The notes below the pieces were generated by a model. The model was given only the letters and a program-made list of their open reading frames with translations, did not search any database and was not told the DNA's origin. 64,000 nucleotides of DNA from Escherichia phage P896, in sequence record OL451225.1, one strand, 5' to 3'. The translations under genes and the position numbers were made by a program. Below are positions 2,901-58,590 of this stretch, piece by piece (the stretch's first letter is position 1; each line of letters begins with the position of its first letter).

Positions 2901-3418
2901 TAATAACCTCGGTCTTGGCGAGCAAAGTTCTCGGCATTTTTCAGGTAATACAGTTTAAAGATTTCTTCTGCTGTCAGACCAAGACCATGGAACATATTCA
3001 GAACAAAGTGCAGGATATCAATCATTTCGAATTTAATTTCGAGCTGGTCTTCAGGAGACAATTCATCAATACGACGATTACGGAATTCAGCATGTTGCGC
3101 TTTCCACGGCTTCCAGCAACTGGATGCGGCTTTCTCACCATTAGACATGCCACCGAGCGAAGTCAGAAGTTCACGGAATTCGTCGTCGACATAATCTTTC
3201 TGGTTACGAAGCCATGCAACAACATCGCCTGCGGTTGCCAATTCATCTGGATGTGTGTTATATTCTGGTTTTTCTGTAGCCAGACGAACCTGCAAAGATT
3301 TCTGCATATCAAGCATAATCTGCAGAGGGTCATCATTGCCTTTTAGGACATCATTATACGCATCTTGCGCTTTATCAACACCAGCAATCAGTTGAGAACA
3401 CTCGTTAAAATGAGCCAT
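2900..3418 (-). CDS. 56: dCTP pyrophosphatase gp56 (MazG-like dCTPase/dUTPase)
   Basis: MAHFNEC...DPLQIMLDMQ...ETAGDVV...SPEDQLEIKFE...LYYLKNAENFARQD matches recalled T4 gp56; start set at second Met. Confidence 0.9.
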   Translation of the reverse strand: MAHFNECSQLIAGVDKAQDAYNDVLKGNDDPLQIMLDMQKSLQVRLATEKPEYNTHPDELATAGDVVAWLRNQKDYVDDEFRELLTSLGGMSNGEKAASSCWKPWKAQHAEFRNRRIDELSPEDQLEIKFEMIDILHFVLNMFHGLGLTAEEIFKLYYLKNAENFARQDRGY

Positions 3419-3808: not shown

Positions 3809-4837
3809 CTAAACTTTTGCGTACTTCGAAAGTCGCATTCTCGCCATCAATCCTTGAGCAACGTTATCGGCCATATATGATTCGATTTGTTCAGGGGTTG
3901 CCCCTTCTGATTTAACCATCTCATTTATGTCTTTCGTATGCCATGGTGCATTGTCCCAGAACATAACAGCTTCGCCAGCTTCAACGAGCTTCTTCATACG
4001 TTTAATCGTATCCGGATGTCTTGGCTCGTTGTCCATTACCCATACTCTTGTTTCAGCATAAGGAACAGCTTCCAATGCCAATGTGCCACCGGTTATCGCA
4101 ATGCTGTTAGGGATAAACAAACTATCAATTGGACCTTCCATTACCCATACGCGTTTACGCTCATCAATCTTGTCTACTCCATAGACTTTGGAAGCTTCTG
4201 GGTGAGCTTTGATTGTGATATATTTTTGTGGTGCATCTTTGCGAAGAGCTCGTCCTTGGAAAGATTCGATTTCTTTTTTGCCGTTGAAGATAGGAATAAC
4301 CAAGCGTGGTTCATTCGTTTCATTCTTATACGTCCCAGGATTGACGGAGTTAACTAATGCAGGCCATTTGTTTGTAAACCATAACCGGTTCCAAACATTG
4401 CTAGGAATACACCGACTTTTTACATACTTAATTATCGGATGTGCTTCTGGTAAAGTATCGAGTCTTTCACAAAAAGCAAGCTGCTCGATAACCGGAGTTT
4501 TTTCTGGTTCTTTCGGAGTTTCTGCAACTTCATTGCGCTGTCTGCCAAAGGCATTCTCCTTATACTTCTCAACCATATATTCCCGGTGTAAATCCGGCTC
4601 AAACTCTTTTATGTATTTGCTTATATGCGTGGAGTAGTCACAGTTAAAACATTTCACGTAAACCGCGCCATCAGACGGATTGGTATACGCCCAGAATCTG
4701 GCTTTATGTGAATCTTTCTGGGAGTCGCCACAAACTTTACATCTGCAGTTTGCCTTAAATGTGCTCCCGGTGACTTCTCTATAACGTGGTTGATACGATA
4801 AAGCTCTGATTGCAAATTCTCTATCAATATATGACAT
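3809..4837 (-). CDS. 61: DNA primase gp61
   Basis: 342 aa (same as T4 gp61); N-terminal Cys4 zinc ribbon (CRCKVCGD...CFNC), TOPRIM-like core. Confidence 0.93.
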   Translation of the reverse strand: MSYIDREFAIRALSYQPRYREVTGSTFKANCRCKVCGDSQKDSHKARFWAYTNPSDGAVYVKCFNCDYSTHISKYIKEFEPDLHREYMVEKYKENAFGRQRNEVAETPKEPEKTPVIEQLAFCERLDTLPEAHPIIKYVKSRCIPSNVWNRLWFTNKWPALVNSVNPGTYKNETNEPRLVIPIFNGKKEIESFQGRALRKDAPQKYITIKAHPEASKVYGVDKIDERKRVWVMEGPIDSLFIPNSIAITGGTLALEAVPYAETRVWVMDNEPRHPDTIKRMKKLVEAGEAVMFWDNAPWHTKDINEMVKSEGATPEQIESYMADNVAQGLMARMRLSKYAKV

Positions 4838-5445: not shown

Positions 5446-5805
5446 TTAACCTCGCTTCATGAAGGCATTAAAAATCTGGTCATCAATATCAGTAGGCGGT
5501 TCTTGAGCTTTGACCCAAGCCCCTTCCAGAATGTCATTTGCTTCAGTAGATATCATGACCCCAATTTCAGGGTTTCCGGTTATCCAGGCTGCACAATCGC
5601 GGACATTCTTTTTATCAAATGGATAACCACGATTATCTTCACAAGGCCCATTCATTGTCATAAATGAACGAGCCTTTATGATAACATCATCTTTAACGAT
5701 AATATAACCAATCGCCTGATTAAACCGTGGCTCACGAAATTCATAATGGGCATTACCATCATTATTGCTCGCCAGTTCAAAATTCAGAAAATTATAATAA
5801 CTCAT
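5446..5805 (-). CDS. Hypothetical protein (119 aa), paralog family ending DDQIFNAFMKRG
   Basis: C-terminal 13 aa and ~45 nt junction near-identical to 5807..6241. Confidence 0.6.
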   Translation of the reverse strand: MSYYNFLNFELASNNDGNAHYEFREPRFNQAIGYIIVKDDVIIKARSFMTMNGPCEDNRGYPFDKKNVRDCAAWITGNPEIGVMISTEANDILEGAWVKAQEPPTDIDDQIFNAFMKRG

Positions 5806-5806
5806 A

Positions 5807-6241
5807 TTAATCTCGCTTCATGAAAGCATTAAAAATCTGGTCATCAACTGAATATACAGGGGTTTCCAGAAGTTTCAAAAGACTGTTTTTGATGTACTTA
5901 CCCGGGATACCCTTAACAATACTGTCATTCAACTCATTATCAGGGTTGATGTCTTTAAATTCAAACCCGTCAAACTCAACCTTGTCAGGAATACCGTCAG
6001 CGAAAAAATAAACCAATTGGTGCATTGTATTGCGCGAAAATAATTTAGACTTGACCGCAATAAGTTCTTGCCAATGGTTTAATTCTTTGTTAAGAAGTTT
6101 ATGAGCAAACGTAATTCTATTATCACTATCAACAAGAAAATAACCCAGGTATTGAATCTCGTCGCTCCAAAACACCCTGTATGCCTGCGCATTTGGATTT
6201 TTACAACGAAGTTTTTTGATAACCAAATTTCTGTTAATCAT
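5807..6241 (-). CDS. Hypothetical protein (144 aa), paralog family ending DDQIFNAFMKRD
   Basis: Start set at MINRNL (TAAAATG coupling to sp); shared C-terminus with 5446..5805. Confidence 0.55.
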   Translation of the reverse strand: MINRNLVIKKLRCKNPNAQAYRVFWSDEIQYLGYFLVDSDNRITFAHKLLNKELNHWQELIAVKSKLFSRNTMHQLVYFFADGIPDKVEFDGFEFKDINPDNELNDSIVKGIPGKYIKNSLLKLLETPVYSVDDQIFNAFMKRD

Positions 6242-6242
6242 T

Positions 6243-6536
6243 TTATTCACCTGTAACCCATTGAACAATTTTGCTATTGTCAAATGAAGCATCGCAATAC
6301 AGAATATAGTTATACTGCATAACGTCACCAGAAGACAATTGGTCAGATACTTCTTTAACCATATCAGGGCGGTCACGTTTGGTTATGTTCATGATATCAG
6401 CACGAATCTGGGTTTCAACTTCAGATTGCTCTGCTGTCATAGACCATTCACAAAGGTTTTTATCAAGCCCAGCAGTAACTGGAGCTGTACCACATGATGC
6501 TACGGTAAGAATTGCTGCAATAATTAACTTTTTCAT
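6243..6536 (-). CDS. sp: Spackle (Sp) periplasmic superinfection-exclusion protein
   Basis: 97 aa; signal peptide; LCEWSMTA...VETQI...DIMNI.KRDRP...MQYNY.LYCD matches recalled T4 Sp (61.3). Confidence 0.8.
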   Translation of the reverse strand: MKKLIIAAILTVASCGTAPVTAGLDKNLCEWSMTAEQSEVETQIRADIMNITKRDRPDMVKEVSDQLSSGDVMQYNYILYCDASFDNSKIVQWVTGE

Positions 6537-6600
6537 AATGTTCTCCTCAGTAGTTGATATGGATAATATACTGCATTATCCCTTTGATGTAAACTGTTAT
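6537..6600 (-). promoter_or_regulatory. T4-type early promoter + conserved leader (family A)
   Basis: Minus strand GTTTACA...TATATTATCC...ACTACTGAGGAGAA-ATG. Confidence 0.6.
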
Positions 6601-6800
6601 TTTTCGTTAGAACGATAATCACATTCAAAAACTTTATTGTCATTAACAAAGGCTTTAACCAGCGCATTATTCACTTCTGCATACTGCACTGTAACCCATT
6701 CAATCATATTTTTGTCACTGACATCCAGCGCGGTTTCTTTGGTAAACATATTACCATTTTCAAACCAACCAATAAACAATACGTTCTCTAATTTATACAT
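6597..6800 (-). CDS. dmd: Dmd antitoxin (discriminator of mRNA degradation, anti-RnlA/LsoA)
   Basis: 67 aa; GWFENGNMFTKE...QYAEVNNALVKAF.ND.KV.E.D matches recalled T4 Dmd (61.5). Confidence 0.8.
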   Translation of the reverse strand: MYKLENVLFIGWFENGNMFTKETALDVSDKNMIEWVTVQYAEVNNALVKAFVNDNKVFECDYRSNEK

Positions 6801-7118
6801 TTAGATTTCCTCACAAAACGCCCAGGCAGCGTGATAAACTGTTGCGCCTTTAGTATCATTTAAACAAACCACGTCAACAGGTGCAATCACACGATAAAGA
6901 CGGGGTTCTCCTCCATATGAGCGAGCTGCTCTTCCTGCATAGATACGCGCCAAACCAATATCTTCAGTAAAAAACACACGCCCTAAATTTTTCTTACGCC
7001 CAACTTCTGACAGAACACCAGTTGCATCAGGAGGACAAAGCATATTTTGGATTCCAGCATTAGAGCTTGACCCATGATAATAAACTTTGTATTCTGCCTT
7101 GCAATCAATGGTTTTCAT
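6801..7118 (-). CDS. Small protein (105 aa) with diphtheria-toxin/PARP-like NAD-binding motif (putative ADP-ribosyltransferase-fold)
   Basis: VYYHGSSS motif (cf. SYHGT of DT, GYHGT of exotoxin A) followed by aromatic-x9-Y (FFTEDIGLARIY); preceded by family A promoter. Confidence 0.45.
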   Translation of the reverse strand: MKTIDCKAEYKVYYHGSSSNAGIQNMLCPPDATGVLSEVGRKKNLGRVFFTEDIGLARIYAGRAARSYGGEPRLYRVIAPVDVVCLNDTKGATVYHAAWAFCEEI

Positions 7119-7186
7119 TTTATTCTCCAGTAGTTGATAGGGTCATTATAACATAAGAAAAAGGGGCTGTAAGCCCCTTTGTTCAC
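7119..7186 (-). promoter_or_regulatory. Terminator hairpin + early promoter/leader (family A variant)
   Basis: GGGGCT-GTAA-AGCCCC hairpin then CAGTAGTTGATAGGG leader. Confidence 0.5.
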
Positions 7187-7489
7187 TTACGCCAACTCAT
7201 AGTTGTGCATAGTCAGACAACGAATTTTCCCAGTAGTTGGGTGCATAACAGTCACACTAATTGTGTAATCATCGCACACGTTAACAAAAGGTTCAGCGAT
7301 AACATATACTGCCCCGCCTGCAAGCAGATACTCACGAAGAGAGCTGCGAACAGATGAAGGTTGAACATCGCTTTTGAGCTTTATTAATTTACCAGTTTGA
7401 ATGCCTGATGCGATAAGAGCAGCACAGTTTTCATCACGGCGAGCGAATTGTCCAAAATAGTAACGATTCATATCGGTTTGATTAAACAT
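7187..7489 (-). CDS. Hypothetical protein (100 aa)
   Basis: ORF track; family B promoter upstream. Confidence 0.55.
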   Translation of the reverse strand: MFNQTDMNRYYFGQFARRDENCAALIASGIQTGKLIKLKSDVQPSSVRSSLREYLLAGGAVYVIAEPFVNVCDDYTISVTVMHPTTGKIRCLTMHNYELA

Positions 7490-7567: not shown

Positions 7568-7816
7568 CTATTTTAATTCATTAATTAAATGAAAATCTTG
7601 TGCATTGAAAGTAATGAAAAAATAATCATTCCCTTCAACTGAAGCATGACAGGCAACACTACACCAGCGCCTTGCTCTGTTCAAGGAGCAATCCAAAATT
7701 TTAAAAGGCTTCAGACCAACAATGGCAGCTGTTCTTTTATTATGCTCACAAATATCAGCATACTTTTGGAGAGCTTCTTCAGATTTGAACTGGTAATGCA
7801 CATTAACTAATAACAT
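7568..7816 (-). CDS. Hypothetical protein (82 aa), Cys-containing
   Basis: ORF track; family A promoter upstream. Confidence 0.55.
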   Translation of the reverse strand: MLLVNVHYQFKSEEALQKYADICEHNKRTAAIVGLKPFKILDCSLNRARRWCSVACHASVEGNDYFFITFNAQDFHLINELK

Positions 7817-7910: not shown

Positions 7911-9350
7911 TTAGAATTTCATTTGAGCAGCAAGGTCGTCCAGGTCGCTCCTGTTGACCCTGGTTTGTCTATTCATTTCAGCCTGGCGATTCATCTCACC
8001 GGTGGCTTCTTTAACCGTAGGGCCTTGTTTAGGAGCTGAATCATCATCAACCTCGTACCAGCGCTGATTACCTTTCTTAACACCCATCTTGAATTTATTA
8101 TAGTAGTTCTTATCGCCATAACGAGACTTAAGCTGTTTGATTAACTGCAGACCCATTTGAGCGAATTCTTCAGTCTCAACAACACCCAACATAAAGTCGG
8201 CCGTGTGAGCAATACCAAAGGATTCTGCGATGTCAGCCATATCAATCTCAGCTGCAACGTTCGCGCCCCTGGTTGTCTGTGCTGCAGTCCACAGGACCAC
8301 ATTTTTCTCAACAGCCAGACCACGAAGTTCTTCTGCAACCATCTTAATCAGGCCGTAACTGTTTTCGGTAAACGTTTTCAGTCTTGAGCTTGCACAGATT
8401 GCCAGGTAGTCAACAATAATCACATCCGGCACAAACCCTTGCTTCAGTTTGTATTCATTCAATAATGCACGGAAGGTATCTGCATGAGCACCGCCAGTTG
8501 GATATTGTTTTATCTTCAGAGTCCCAAGAGTCCCTGATGCCCGCCATTTTTCCATCTTAGCTTTGTATTCTGCCCATGATATATGACCTTCATCAATATC
8601 ATCCAGAGACACATCCAGCAAGTTGGCATCAATACGTTTGGCACATACTTCTTCAGCCATTTCCATGCTTATATAAAGCACGTTATGACCAGTCTGAAGA
8701 TAGTCGGCCGCTAACGAACAAAGTCCCAGAGATTTCCCGACGTTGGTCCCGGCCAGTAAAACGTTCTCTGTGCCATACTCAACCCCACCCTTTGTGATTT
8801 TATTCAGGATGTTAATACGGAACGGAACCTTCTTCGATTTGTTCAGATAAGTCTGGAATCGAGCCTCGTAATCGTTTAACCAGTCATGGCCGAGGGCAGA
8901 ATCAAAACAGATGGACAATGCATCACGCATGATGTCAGGGATAGCACCGATATCCGGGATTCGTTTATCACGTTTATCTTTCGGAAGTTCGGCATTACTC
9001 TGGATTTCGATAATCCTGGATGTGGCATTGAACATCGCAGATTTCTGCACATACTTCTCGGTTTCTCTAACCAACCATTCTTGGTCTTCTGGAGTATCGG
9101 CCAGGACTCCTAAGAGTTTCTTTGTGCCTTCATATTCGACTTCAGAAAGGTCAGAACTGTCGAGCGCGATATCAAGTGCAGTCTTAGTTGGTACCGCTTG
9201 ATATTCTTTTACGTGTTCGTTAATCGTATTAAAAAGAGTCTTCGCGGGACCCTTTTCAAAATATGTGTTATTCAGATACGGCCAGACTTTAACAAAATAT
9301 TCCTTGTTAAAGAGTAGCTGGGATAAAATAGTTTCTACCACTTCCACCAC
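7911..9350 (-). CDS. 41: Replicative DNA helicase gp41 (DnaB-like)
   Basis: 479 aa; Walker A GTNVGKSLGL, RecA-like core; position between 61-region and 40/uvsX as in T4. Confidence 0.93.
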   Translation of the reverse strand: MVEVVETILSQLLFNKEYFVKVWPYLNNTYFEKGPAKTLFNTINEHVKEYQAVPTKTALDIALDSSDLSEVEYEGTKKLLGVLADTPEDQEWLVRETEKYVQKSAMFNATSRIIEIQSNAELPKDKRDKRIPDIGAIPDIMRDALSICFDSALGHDWLNDYEARFQTYLNKSKKVPFRINILNKITKGGVEYGTENVLLAGTNVGKSLGLCSLAADYLQTGHNVLYISMEMAEEVCAKRIDANLLDVSLDDIDEGHISWAEYKAKMEKWRASGTLGTLKIKQYPTGGAHADTFRALLNEYKLKQGFVPDVIIVDYLAICASSRLKTFTENSYGLIKMVAEELRGLAVEKNVVLWTAAQTTRGANVAAEIDMADIAESFGIAHTADFMLGVVETEEFAQMGLQLIKQLKSRYGDKNYYNKFKMGVKKGNQRWYEVDDDSAPKQGPTVKEATGEMNRQAEMNRQTRVNRSDLDDLAAQMKF

Positions 9351-58113: not shown

Positions 58114-58590
58114 TTAAAGCATATCAAGCGCTTTAACAGATGGGATTCGGATTTCTTCTTCGATTATATATAGCTTAACATAAGAAATTACACGCATGAA
58201 ATCGCCATCATATTCGCAAGCCATACCAAGGAGCTCAGTAAGGGATTCATTCAGGTAGTATGCTTCTTCATCATCATTCAGCAATGCATCTAAATCTTCT
58301 ACACCCAGAACCTTACTTAAAAATTCATGGGTTAACTGGCCAGATTTTACGCCAGATGCAATGTGGGCAATAACCAAGTGTTTAACCACATCCCATTCTG
58401 AATTACCACATTTATTGCGGTTGTTACAATGTGAACCATGGAAAAGTTCCAGGATATATTTGTACTGTTGGATTTCTTGTTCTTCTACGCCAAATACCGT
58501 TTGGGTTTTATAGTTGTCACCATCATTTTCCCAGGTTTCAATTTCAATCACATAACCTTTAGGGATGGTCTGACCAAATTTAATATTCAT
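58114..58590 (-). CDS. Hypothetical protein (158 aa)
   Basis: ORF track. Confidence 0.55.
   Translation of the reverse strand: MNIKFGQTIPKGYVIEIETWENDGDNYKTQTVFGVEEQEIQQYKYILELFHGSHCNNRNKCGNSEWDVVKHLVIAHIASGVKSGQLTHEFLSKVLGVEDLDALLNDDEEAYYLNESLTELLGMACEYDGDFMRVISYVKLYIIEEEIRIPSVKALDML

Follow-up and report, generated by a model that had tools for sequence, protein, structure and literature searches.

The question raised by this locus is whether a protein of 105 amino acids, encoded immediately upstream of dmd in a T4-type phage, is an ADP-ribosyltransferase (ART) and, if so, what it might act upon. We addressed it by computational analysis of a 64,000-nucleotide stretch of DNA from Escherichia phage P896 (sequence record OL451225.1), referred to below as the window, the closest relatives of which are the Gaprivervirus members SP18, VR20 and vB_EcoM_RZ (96-98% identity). 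An initial annotation, made from the letters alone, had recognised in this protein an H-G-S motif and an aromatic-x9-Tyr segment of the kind found in NAD-binding toxins, and had put it forward as a candidate mini-ART. The open reading frame is present in the ORF listing at positions 6801..7118 on the minus strand, the strand being a detail that had gone unstated; it has an ATG start and a TAA stop (6803-6801), and its sequence (MKTIDCKAEYKVYYHGSSSNAGIQ...RVFFTEDIGLARIY...) is the same as that quoted originally. The aromatic segment, FFTEDIGLARIY, comprises residues 49-60 and accommodates both F49-x10-Y60 and F50-x9-Y60. The tetrapeptide [FYW]HG[ST] alone is non-significant, with 2 matches against 0.76 expected over all stop-free stretches of the window. 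The combined pattern [FYW]HG[ST]-x25-45-[FY]h[ST]-x8-Y occurs once in the window and was seen in none of 200 residue shuffles. A second ORF containing 'FHGS', at 58114-58590, is without the further motif elements and was set aside.

An AlphaFold2 model built from a 34-sequence alignment (mean pLDDT 85.7, pTM 0.79) has a strand-loop-strand-helix arrangement followed by four strands, which as predicted would form the split beta-sheet of the ART fold with an NAD+ cleft. A Foldseek search of the PDB with this model ranked Arr first with a probability of 1.0. The structural matches of the model also contain a near-unbroken run of ARTs that includes Rhs/Tre toxins, PARPs, pertussis-like toxins, DarT, RES/ParT, Scabin and others. 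In BFVD the third-ranked match, behind two members of the family itself, is a phage protein of 94 aa that bears the name 'Rifampin ADP-ribosyl transferase' (36% identity, TM 0.72-0.80).

At the level of sequence the relationship to Arr emerges by way of profiles and intermediates. The single 105-aa protein has no match in Pfam, even at E<=10, nor in NCBIfam or among PDB sequences, and nothing was found in the PDB with a profile of its close homologues (A1). A broader profile (A2) matches Arr-ms (2HW2/9IAF) with E 3.5e-4, and its alignment by hhalign with Arr-2, the sequence of which was checked against 9IBA, has a probability of 95.6% and E 1.3e-8. Among the divergent members of the family, 23 of 34 match the Pfam Arr-ms family individually at E<0.01 (best E 2.6e-8), and larger proteins that are recognised by the family profile with E ~1e-25 to 1e-29 match Arr-ms over the identical segment. 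Three fused members exceed the Pfam Arr-ms gathering threshold, which the window protein does not, and one member of the broad family matches an annotated genuine Arr by tblastn. Homology to Arr would appear to be established by these routes, and we regard it as close to certain that the 105-aa protein is an ART-fold homologue of Arr; the phage-specific family belongs next to Arr (rifampin ART) as its divergent sister.

The alignment of the A2 profile with Arr-ms pairs H15 with H19, F49 with Y49, E38 with E40 and R41 with R43. In Arr, H19 and Y49 are experimentally critical NAD-binding residues, and the loop between them is the proposed NAD site (PMC6092378). The assignment of the H-G-S motif and of the aromatic element in the initial annotation was therefore correct, because H15 and F49 fall on precisely these two residues. 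We also looked for a predicted structure lacking an ART-like NAD pocket and for a confident match to an unrelated family, the two outcomes that had been named as fatal to the proposal, and encountered neither; the reading as a candidate mini-ART is supported both by the Arr profile homology and by the predicted fold.

Residue conservation was assessed over 215 sequences, made up of 116 T4-like proteins and 99 distant domains and spanning less than 50% identity. All three of the elements expected of an ART, namely H-G-[ST], an aromatic-x-[ST] strand and a second Tyr, are present. The NAD-binding motif H15-G16-S17 (codons 7068..7076, minus strand), at the end of strand 1, is close to invariant, with His in 214 of the 215 sequences, Gly in all 215 and Ser or Thr at position 17 likewise in all. 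The aromatic/Thr strand and helix Tyr, F49-F-T51...Y60 (codons 6939..6974, minus strand), which would supply the nicotinamide-stacking elements, are retained to a similar degree (F49 213/215, with Tyr in the other 2; T51 212/215; Y60 215/215), as is G91 (210/215). Between strands 1 and 2 lies a conserved, basic and flexible loop, E38-V-G-R41-K-K-N-L45 (codons 6984..7007, minus strand), in which E38 is found in 211 and R41 in 212 of the 215 sequences. The loop is modelled with low confidence (AlphaFold2 pLDDT 63-74 over E38-L45) and is a putative NAD-phosphate or substrate loop.

The catalytic acid is the one element for which the window protein departs from expectation. The position concerned lies in D82-V83-V84 (codons 6867..6875, minus strand), where residue 84, at the start of the strand that follows the EPxG turn, aligns with E82 of Arr-ms and E89 of Arr-2. 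Distant members have Glu here in 54 of 99 cases (~55%) and virion-fused copies have Glu or Asp in 40 of 53. In the T4-like copies, the window protein included, the residue is Val in 82 of 116 and Glu in 11 of 116. Position 82 is acidic in 100 of the 116 T4-like copies, and in 10 of them an acid is missing at both 82 and 84. Since Val84 is so prevalent and some copies have no acid at either site, the T4-like clade may have altered or lost transferase activity. This clade has in addition acquired residues of its own, with D/E88 in 96, H96 in 111, W99 in 97 and E103 in 114 of the 116 copies. The C-terminal Glu residues had been suggested as catalytic candidates, which is now doubtful, and we have downgraded E103 because its codon lies within the ribosome binding site of dmd and conservation of the residue does not extend to the wider family beyond the T4-like clade. 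There are precedents for activity with such an active site. AcrIF11, another phage ART, is active with H-F-H-D as its key residues in place of H-Y-Y-E and so offers a precedent for Phe in the Tyr position as well (PMC12421852), and ARTs that are devoid of the Glu can employ substrate-assisted catalysis, some of them, including PARP10/11/15 and TRPT1, ADP-ribosylating RNA 5'-phosphates (PMC8883491). These precedents make an active enzyme plausible, and on balance our analysis leads us to think that the 105-aa protein probably is catalytically active.

Comparison with characterised ARTs helps to define what the protein is and what it is not. Homology to Arr (PF12120; PDB 2HW2, 9IAF, 9IBA) is detectable over residues 7-84. 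Arr and the family have in common the H-G-[ST] motif, the aromatic strand and the E-x-G-R loop, and in the wider family also the EPxG turn; Arr and the candidate are both small single-domain ARTs. They differ in that Arr has 143-150 residues rather than 105, that Phe49 of the candidate takes the place of an Arr Tyr, that the basic loop (RKKN) of the candidate is longer by 4 residues, and that Arr is a bacterial resistance gene whereas the candidate is a phage early gene. In Arr the catalytic residue D84 lies within a DPN[VL] motif, and rifampin is contacted by residues 87-99 and by a C-terminal M[RK][DE]xL helix (PMC6092378). The DPN motif is missing from the candidate, in which the residues that follow position 84 are C-L-N-D, and Arr residues ~100-143 have no counterpart in it. 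We therefore reject its identification as a rifampin ART, because the alignment with Arr ends before D84 and the drug-contact region; with those regions missing, the label 'rifampin ADP-ribosyl transferase' is an over-transfer of the family name.

The likeness to diphtheria toxin and exotoxin A that was originally drawn does not hold up. These toxins and PARP (the H-Y-E ARTDs) are far larger, with extra strands and loops, have no detectable sequence relationship to the candidate, and in the case of diphtheria toxin, exotoxin A and PARP1 conserve the Glu; the nearest relatives are instead Arr and the NAD lobe of KptA/Tpt1, along with AcrIF11. KptA/Tpt1 is an RNA 2'-phosphotransferase (PDB 9LD3, 7KW9) than which the candidate is ~75 residues shorter and to which it has no match at the sequence level. 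In chain 9ld3_A, 75 of 179 residues were matched; these represent the NAD lobe alone, with no second lobe, and identity with KptA was rejected. The N-terminal RNA-binding lobe of KptA bears a catalytic Arg-His-Arg-Arg tetrad. AcrIF11, an anti-CRISPR mono-ART (PDB 6KYF, 8DWQ), likewise has no detected sequence similarity to the candidate; its own features are a D/E loop that is conserved and a helical insert, itself variable, with which Csy is recognised. Its target, N250 of Cas8f, is irrelevant to most T4-like hosts, and nothing in the analysis linked the candidate to CRISPR. Another counterpart is the 'p0068-like' ART, which in the same group of phages is encoded, as is the candidate, immediately upstream of dmd and belongs to a family that is frequent among viral ARTs (PMC9503650). 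Its H-[Y/F]-[E/D/Q] pattern agrees with what is seen in the wider family described here, in which E84 is common, whereas the window copy has Val. The arrangement in the window fits that of Iyer et al. and no other ART-like gene flanks dmd there; we therefore infer from gene context that the two are the same gene, and that the window family is probably the 'p0068-like' family of Iyer/Aravind.

The genetic setting of the candidate is summarised as follows. The initial annotation placed the gene between dmd and gene 41, behind a family A early promoter of its own. Its adjacency to dmd (6597..6800, minus strand; Pfam Dmd E 3.9e-20, PHROG 2102 E 2.1e-33) is exact, with the dmd ATG directly abutting the TAA of the candidate ORF (TGT GAG GAA ATC TAA ATG). 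On the upstream side the description needs amending, as two more ORFs intervene before gene 41 (7911-9350, minus strand): a goF-like ORF (7568-7816, minus strand; PHROG goF E 3.6e-20) and, between this and the candidate, a 100-aa ORF of unknown function (7187-7489, minus strand) that has no PADLOC match. The order on the coding strand is thus gene 41, goF-like ORF, 100-aa ORF, candidate, dmd and sp, which places the candidate in the variable 61-41 region close to dmd, goF and sp. A sigma-70/T4-early-type promoter-like site, CTTACA-17-TG-TATAAT (7173..7145, minus strand; 10/12 match, extended -10), has the top score in the region, and a leader/RBS motif, TATCAACTACTGGAGA (7124..7139, minus strand), lies upstream of the candidate start codon. 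The window has this motif (TATCAACTACTGRRGA / TATCAACTACTGGAGA) 9 times where 0.08 would be expected, and each copy lies on the minus strand. This is consistent with the promoter family of the initial annotation. An intrinsic-terminator-like hairpin (7180..7160, minus strand; 9-bp stem with 5 GC pairs and a T-rich tail) comes after the 100-aa ORF and overlaps the -35 of the promoter-like site; it may, as a terminator-like element, end the upstream transcription unit. The E103-E104 codons, GAGGAA (6807..6812, minus strand), double as the Shine-Dalgarno sequence of dmd, and from the layout of the sequence dmd is probably co-transcribed with, and translationally coupled to, the ART gene. Abutting genes, or a 4-nt overlap, are seen for ART and dmd in Mosigvirus and other Tevenvirinae as well (SP18, mogra).

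The family is widely distributed in phages. The 105-aa protein is matched end to end by PHROG 2110 (unknown function; E 1.3e-58), and tblastn identified the ART in 609 phage records with identities from 100% down to 35%. By host these comprise 215 records from Escherichia, 116 from Klebsiella, 68 from Acinetobacter and 62 from Aeromonas, with further ones from phages of Enterobacter, Shigella, Cronobacter, Vibrio and others. With a word-indexed search 121 matches were obtained, of which the 120 listed all had at least 53% identity. When 1.84 billion representatives were searched in full with an HMM, 245 clusters were found at E<=1e-3, and in uncultured phages the domain is encoded by solo genes of ~100 aa that adjoin genes for terminase, DNA polymerase B and RecA-like proteins. 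A scan of genome contigs found 4 loci only, one phage-contig-like and two in Patescibacteria MAGs, which offered no informative cellular setting; the plasmid search returned genuine Arr alone, and PADLOC gave no match for the ART or its relatives. The ART domain is essentially absent from cellular genomes and plasmids, and together with the silence of PADLOC this marks the family as a phage effector domain. In metagenomic phage proteins of the family, as distinct from the window copy, the domain is fused to virion or effector modules. These include a portal protein followed by the domain and a 2H/Acb1-like phosphoesterase (P0160), ART-PolyVal with the domain and NUDIX (P0149), GNAT and Toprim with the domain (P0180), a 3924-aa minor tail/tape-measure-type protein (P0135), a 2892-aa CHAP protein (P0171), and a combination of DUF7178 with the domain. 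Such 'polyvalent' architectures for virion-delivered effectors have been discussed by Iyer et al. 2022 (PMC9503650). The fusions suggest an effector that is brought into the cell, or made there, as infection begins.

Taken as a whole, we favour an effector directed at the host, to which we assign a probability of about 0.6, over four other explanations. Iyer et al. 2022 described a 'p0068-family ART toxin + Dmd antitoxin' in phages of Escherichia, Shigella and Salmonella (PMC9503650), according to which the ART would be a toxin, perhaps RNA-modifying, and the downstream Dmd its cognate antitoxin, the two forming a superinfection exclusion or addiction module. This is a published proposal for exactly such a gene arrangement. 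In the window the genes are adjacent and co-oriented, the ART stop abuts the dmd start, the dmd Shine-Dalgarno sequence lies inside ART codons, and the like adjacency or 4-nt overlap recurs in Mosigvirus and other Tevenvirinae. A toxin-first gene order is also that of rnlA-rnlB, which the present order resembles. However, tight packing and start/stop overlap are usual in T4 early clusters, so that adjacency alone is weak evidence, and the phyletic distributions of the two genes are largely independent. There are 797 phage records with dmd, nearly all from phages of Escherichia, Shigella, Yersinia or Salmonella and mostly of Tequatrovirus type without the ART, while at least 246 of the 609 ART records are from phages of Klebsiella, Acinetobacter and Aeromonas, genera that are absent among the dmd matches listed. 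We considered whether, in phages of those three genera, the small ORFs that follow the ART are cryptic Dmd homologues and rejected this, since by Pfam and PHROG they belong to unrelated families. Moreover, the gene for P0125, a canonical homologue with D82 as well as E84, stands alone on the plus strand amid minus-strand genes in four uncultured-phage contigs, a Vibrio phage copy has no co-oriented gene downstream, and a role of Dmd against RnlA/LsoA is already established. The ART and dmd do not co-occur as a unit across genomes, an obligate toxin-antitoxin pairing of ART and Dmd is weakened by these observations, and we consider the module unlikely for this locus. Less likely still is a small-molecule ART after the manner of Arr, which would ADP-ribosylate rifamycins or another diffusible compound, whether an antibiotic or a chemical anti-phage agent, and thereby protect the infected cell. 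Arr is the closest sequence family, some GenBank records carry the name 'rifampin ADP-ribosyl transferase', and reviews have proposed other small-molecule substrates for Arr (PMC8883491, PMC9503650). Against this, the Arr alignment stops at residue 84, the candidate ends at residue 105 with no counterpart of the catalytic D84/DPN[VL] or of the rifampin contacts, the portal and tail fusions indicate intracellular macromolecular targets, and rifamycin resistance is of no obvious benefit to a lytic phage.

The remaining two explanations turn on the chemistry of the active site. If the T4-like clade, in losing the Glu, had become a non-catalytic binder of NAD+ or of ADP-ribose ligands, the protein could act as a binding module that depends on NAD, or it could soak up NAD-derived immune signals in the manner of a decoy or sponge. 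The use of sponges against NAD-derived signals is well established in phages, the NAD-pocket residues are kept, and Val at position 84 in 82/116 of the T4-like copies stands out against Glu in 54/99 distant and an acid in 40/53 fused ones. The acid that persists at position 82 in 100/116 copies argues against it, as does the very strong conservation of E38/R41/K42/K43 and H-G-S, which resembles that of an enzyme active site; furthermore, activity is common among ARTs that have no Glu, and AcrIF11 is active although its motif is non-canonical. We view a purely binding role as improbable. A nucleic-acid ART directed at phosphates, similar to KptA/TRPT1 or PARP10, would instead modify terminal RNA or DNA phosphates or produce ADP-ribose-phosphate derivatives, protecting phage transcripts or disabling host or defence RNAs. 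For a phosphate acceptor a hydrophobic third catalytic residue suffices in place of the Glu (PMC8883491), and RNA substrates have been speculated upon by Iyer et al. (PMC9503650). The basic loop R41-K42-K43 is conserved, the 2H phosphoesterase and NUDIX modules found in fusions process ADP-ribose derivatives, and goF and dmd, which lie nearby, both act in the metabolism of mRNA. Yet the candidate is without the N-terminal RNA-binding lobe of KptA and its catalytic Arg/His residues, only the NAD lobe being matched, and is not similar to KptA in sequence; the modules found in fusions may be effectors in their own right, and the pI is just 8.4. It seems doubtful, accordingly, that phosphates are the acceptor. 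A more elaborate version is that the T4-like clade, having exchanged Glu84 for Val and gained H96, W99 and D88, is a 105-aa phosphate-directed ART that, as infection begins, acts on RNA/DNA termini or makes an ADP-ribose-phosphate product and, with Dmd and goF, protects the mRNA of the phage against RNases of the host or against defences that target RNA. We rate this as a long shot; if true, no smaller nucleic-acid ART would be known, and phage counter-defence would have gained a new chemistry.

A model for the host-directed effector that we favour is as follows. Members of the family either enter the cell along with the phage DNA or, as is apparently the case here, are transcribed from a promoter-like site of early type. 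Once infection begins, the ART would bind NAD+ in the bent ART conformation, release nicotinamide and pass one ADP-ribose to a host macromolecule, acting in host takeover or counter-defence. Because the canonical Glu position is occupied by Val84, catalysis would depend on D82 or on the acceptor itself, in a substrate-assisted manner like that of the Glu-less mono-ART PARPs. Our best guess, which is speculative, is that the acceptor would be a component of host RNA metabolism or of an RNA-targeting defence, either a protein or an RNA end; it is prompted by the goF and dmd neighbours and by the basic R41-K42-K43 loop. It should be noted that a guess at the target from gene neighbourhood is weak evidence in the densely packed early regions of T4 phages, and this part of the model remains speculative.

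Genes of this type have already been predicted to encode ARTs and their arrangement with Dmd has already been described (PMC9503650), and some GenBank records name homologues 'putative ADP-ribosyl transferase' or 'rifampin ADP-ribosyl transferase'; our literature search found no experimental characterisation of the ART family. To this our work adds the statistical link to Arr, the mapping of residues, the unusual Val84 of the T4-like clade, the caveat arising from the overlap of E103 with the ribosome binding site, and the phyletic evidence against an obligate ART-Dmd pair. The case is a solid one for a widespread putative phage enzyme, which is no new kind of system and is unsurprising to a specialist.

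In the conflict between phages and their hosts, ADP-ribosylation serves either party as a first-line weapon, as illustrated by Alt/ModA/ModB, DarT, CmdT and AcrIF11. The present family is carried by ~600 sequenced phages of the T4-like group, which infect Escherichia, Klebsiella, Acinetobacter, Aeromonas and Vibrio and include many candidates for phage therapy; it also forms part of virion proteins in many uncultured phages. With ~95 core residues the domain is close to a minimal ART. Definition of the acceptor would correct the misleading, antibiotic-resistance-like label 'rifampin ADP-ribosyl transferase' that is spreading in phage annotations, and would provide a tractable model of how a minimal ART chooses its substrate and carries out catalysis without the canonical Glu.

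Upstream of the gene for the candidate ADP-ribosyltransferase-fold protein (ART; window positions 6801-7118, minus strand), terminator and promoter overlap compactly within positions 7145-7180 of the minus strand. The -35 hexamer of the promoter-like site (CTTACA) sits inside the terminator-like hairpin of the preceding unit, AAAGGGGCTTACAGCCCCTTT. That preceding unit, which is separate from the ART and has the terminator at its end, is a 100-aa ORF (7187-7489, minus strand) belonging to PHROG 17014, a family of unknown function, and searches of Pfam and PADLOC returned no match to it. The slot it occupies, flanked by the goF-like gene on one side and by the ART on the other, is variable, since in the Mosigvirus 'mogra' the same position is filled by a different ORF of 124 aa (PHROG 10668).

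A 16-nt leader/RBS motif, TATCAACTACTGRRGA, lies at 7124, between this promoter-like site and the ART start codon, and recurs at 2275, 6544, 7827, 25010, 34863, 38794, 59168 and 59502. The nine copies compare with 0.08 expected by chance in the window, and all are on the minus strand, shortly 5' of start codons. The motif is probably the downstream portion of an early promoter/leader family.

At the other end of the gene, the codons for Glu103 and Glu104 of the ART (GAGGAA, 6807-6812, minus strand) also form the Shine-Dalgarno sequence of dmd. In the KLB15 record the ribosome-binding site of the downstream gene is likewise annotated within the ART 3' end (positions 3308-3311 of locus L001). 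Because a ribosome-binding site is embedded here, conservation of the ART C-terminus may in part reflect constraint at the nucleotide level.

Elsewhere in the window, the tetrapeptide pattern [FYW]HG[ST] occurs outside the ART only in a 158-aa ORF (58114-58590, minus strand) as LFHGS; the other ART motif elements are absent from this ORF, and the match is probably coincidental. Two neighbouring minus-strand ORFs of 119 aa (5446-5805) and 189 aa (5807-6376) are otherwise dissimilar but have in common the C-terminal peptide DDQIFNAFMKR[G/D], their C-termini being identical at 14 of 27 positions (E 1e-6), which may reflect a C-terminal module common to both or a joint left by recombination.

Homologues of the ART are also found in bacterial assemblies. 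One, with 70% identity, is encoded at 4001-4315 of locus L012 from Flagellimonas marina (NZ_JBHSCL010000010.1); the contig is 178,077 bp, a size as in T4-like phages, and is probably a Straboviridae genome that was co-assembled with, or contaminates, the bacterial assembly. Two candidate-phyla-radiation metagenome-assembled genomes carry homologues with 48-49% identity, one of Ca. Kaiserbacteria (OY969413.1; L013, 4001-4297, the match lying within a 148-aa ORF at 3902-4348) and one of Patescibacteria (L014, 4001-4288).

In Aeromonas phage AS-gz (L005, 2501-3574) an 81-aa ORF (PHROG 7668) comes directly after the ART homologue, and the next gene carries the annotation guanosine-3',5'-bis(diphosphate) 3'-pyrophosphohydrolase, by that label another nucleotide-signalling enzyme in this early cluster. 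The domain is also found fused within larger metagenomic phage proteins, accompanying a lambda-type portal and a 2H/Acb1-like phosphoesterase in P0160 (954 aa), ART-PolyVal and NUDIX domains in P0149 (1955 aa), and lying within a minor-tail/tape-measure-type protein in P0135 (3924 aa). P0149, P0131 and P0181 each carry two ART domains in a single polypeptide, and this pairing suggests that the two domains have distinct targets.
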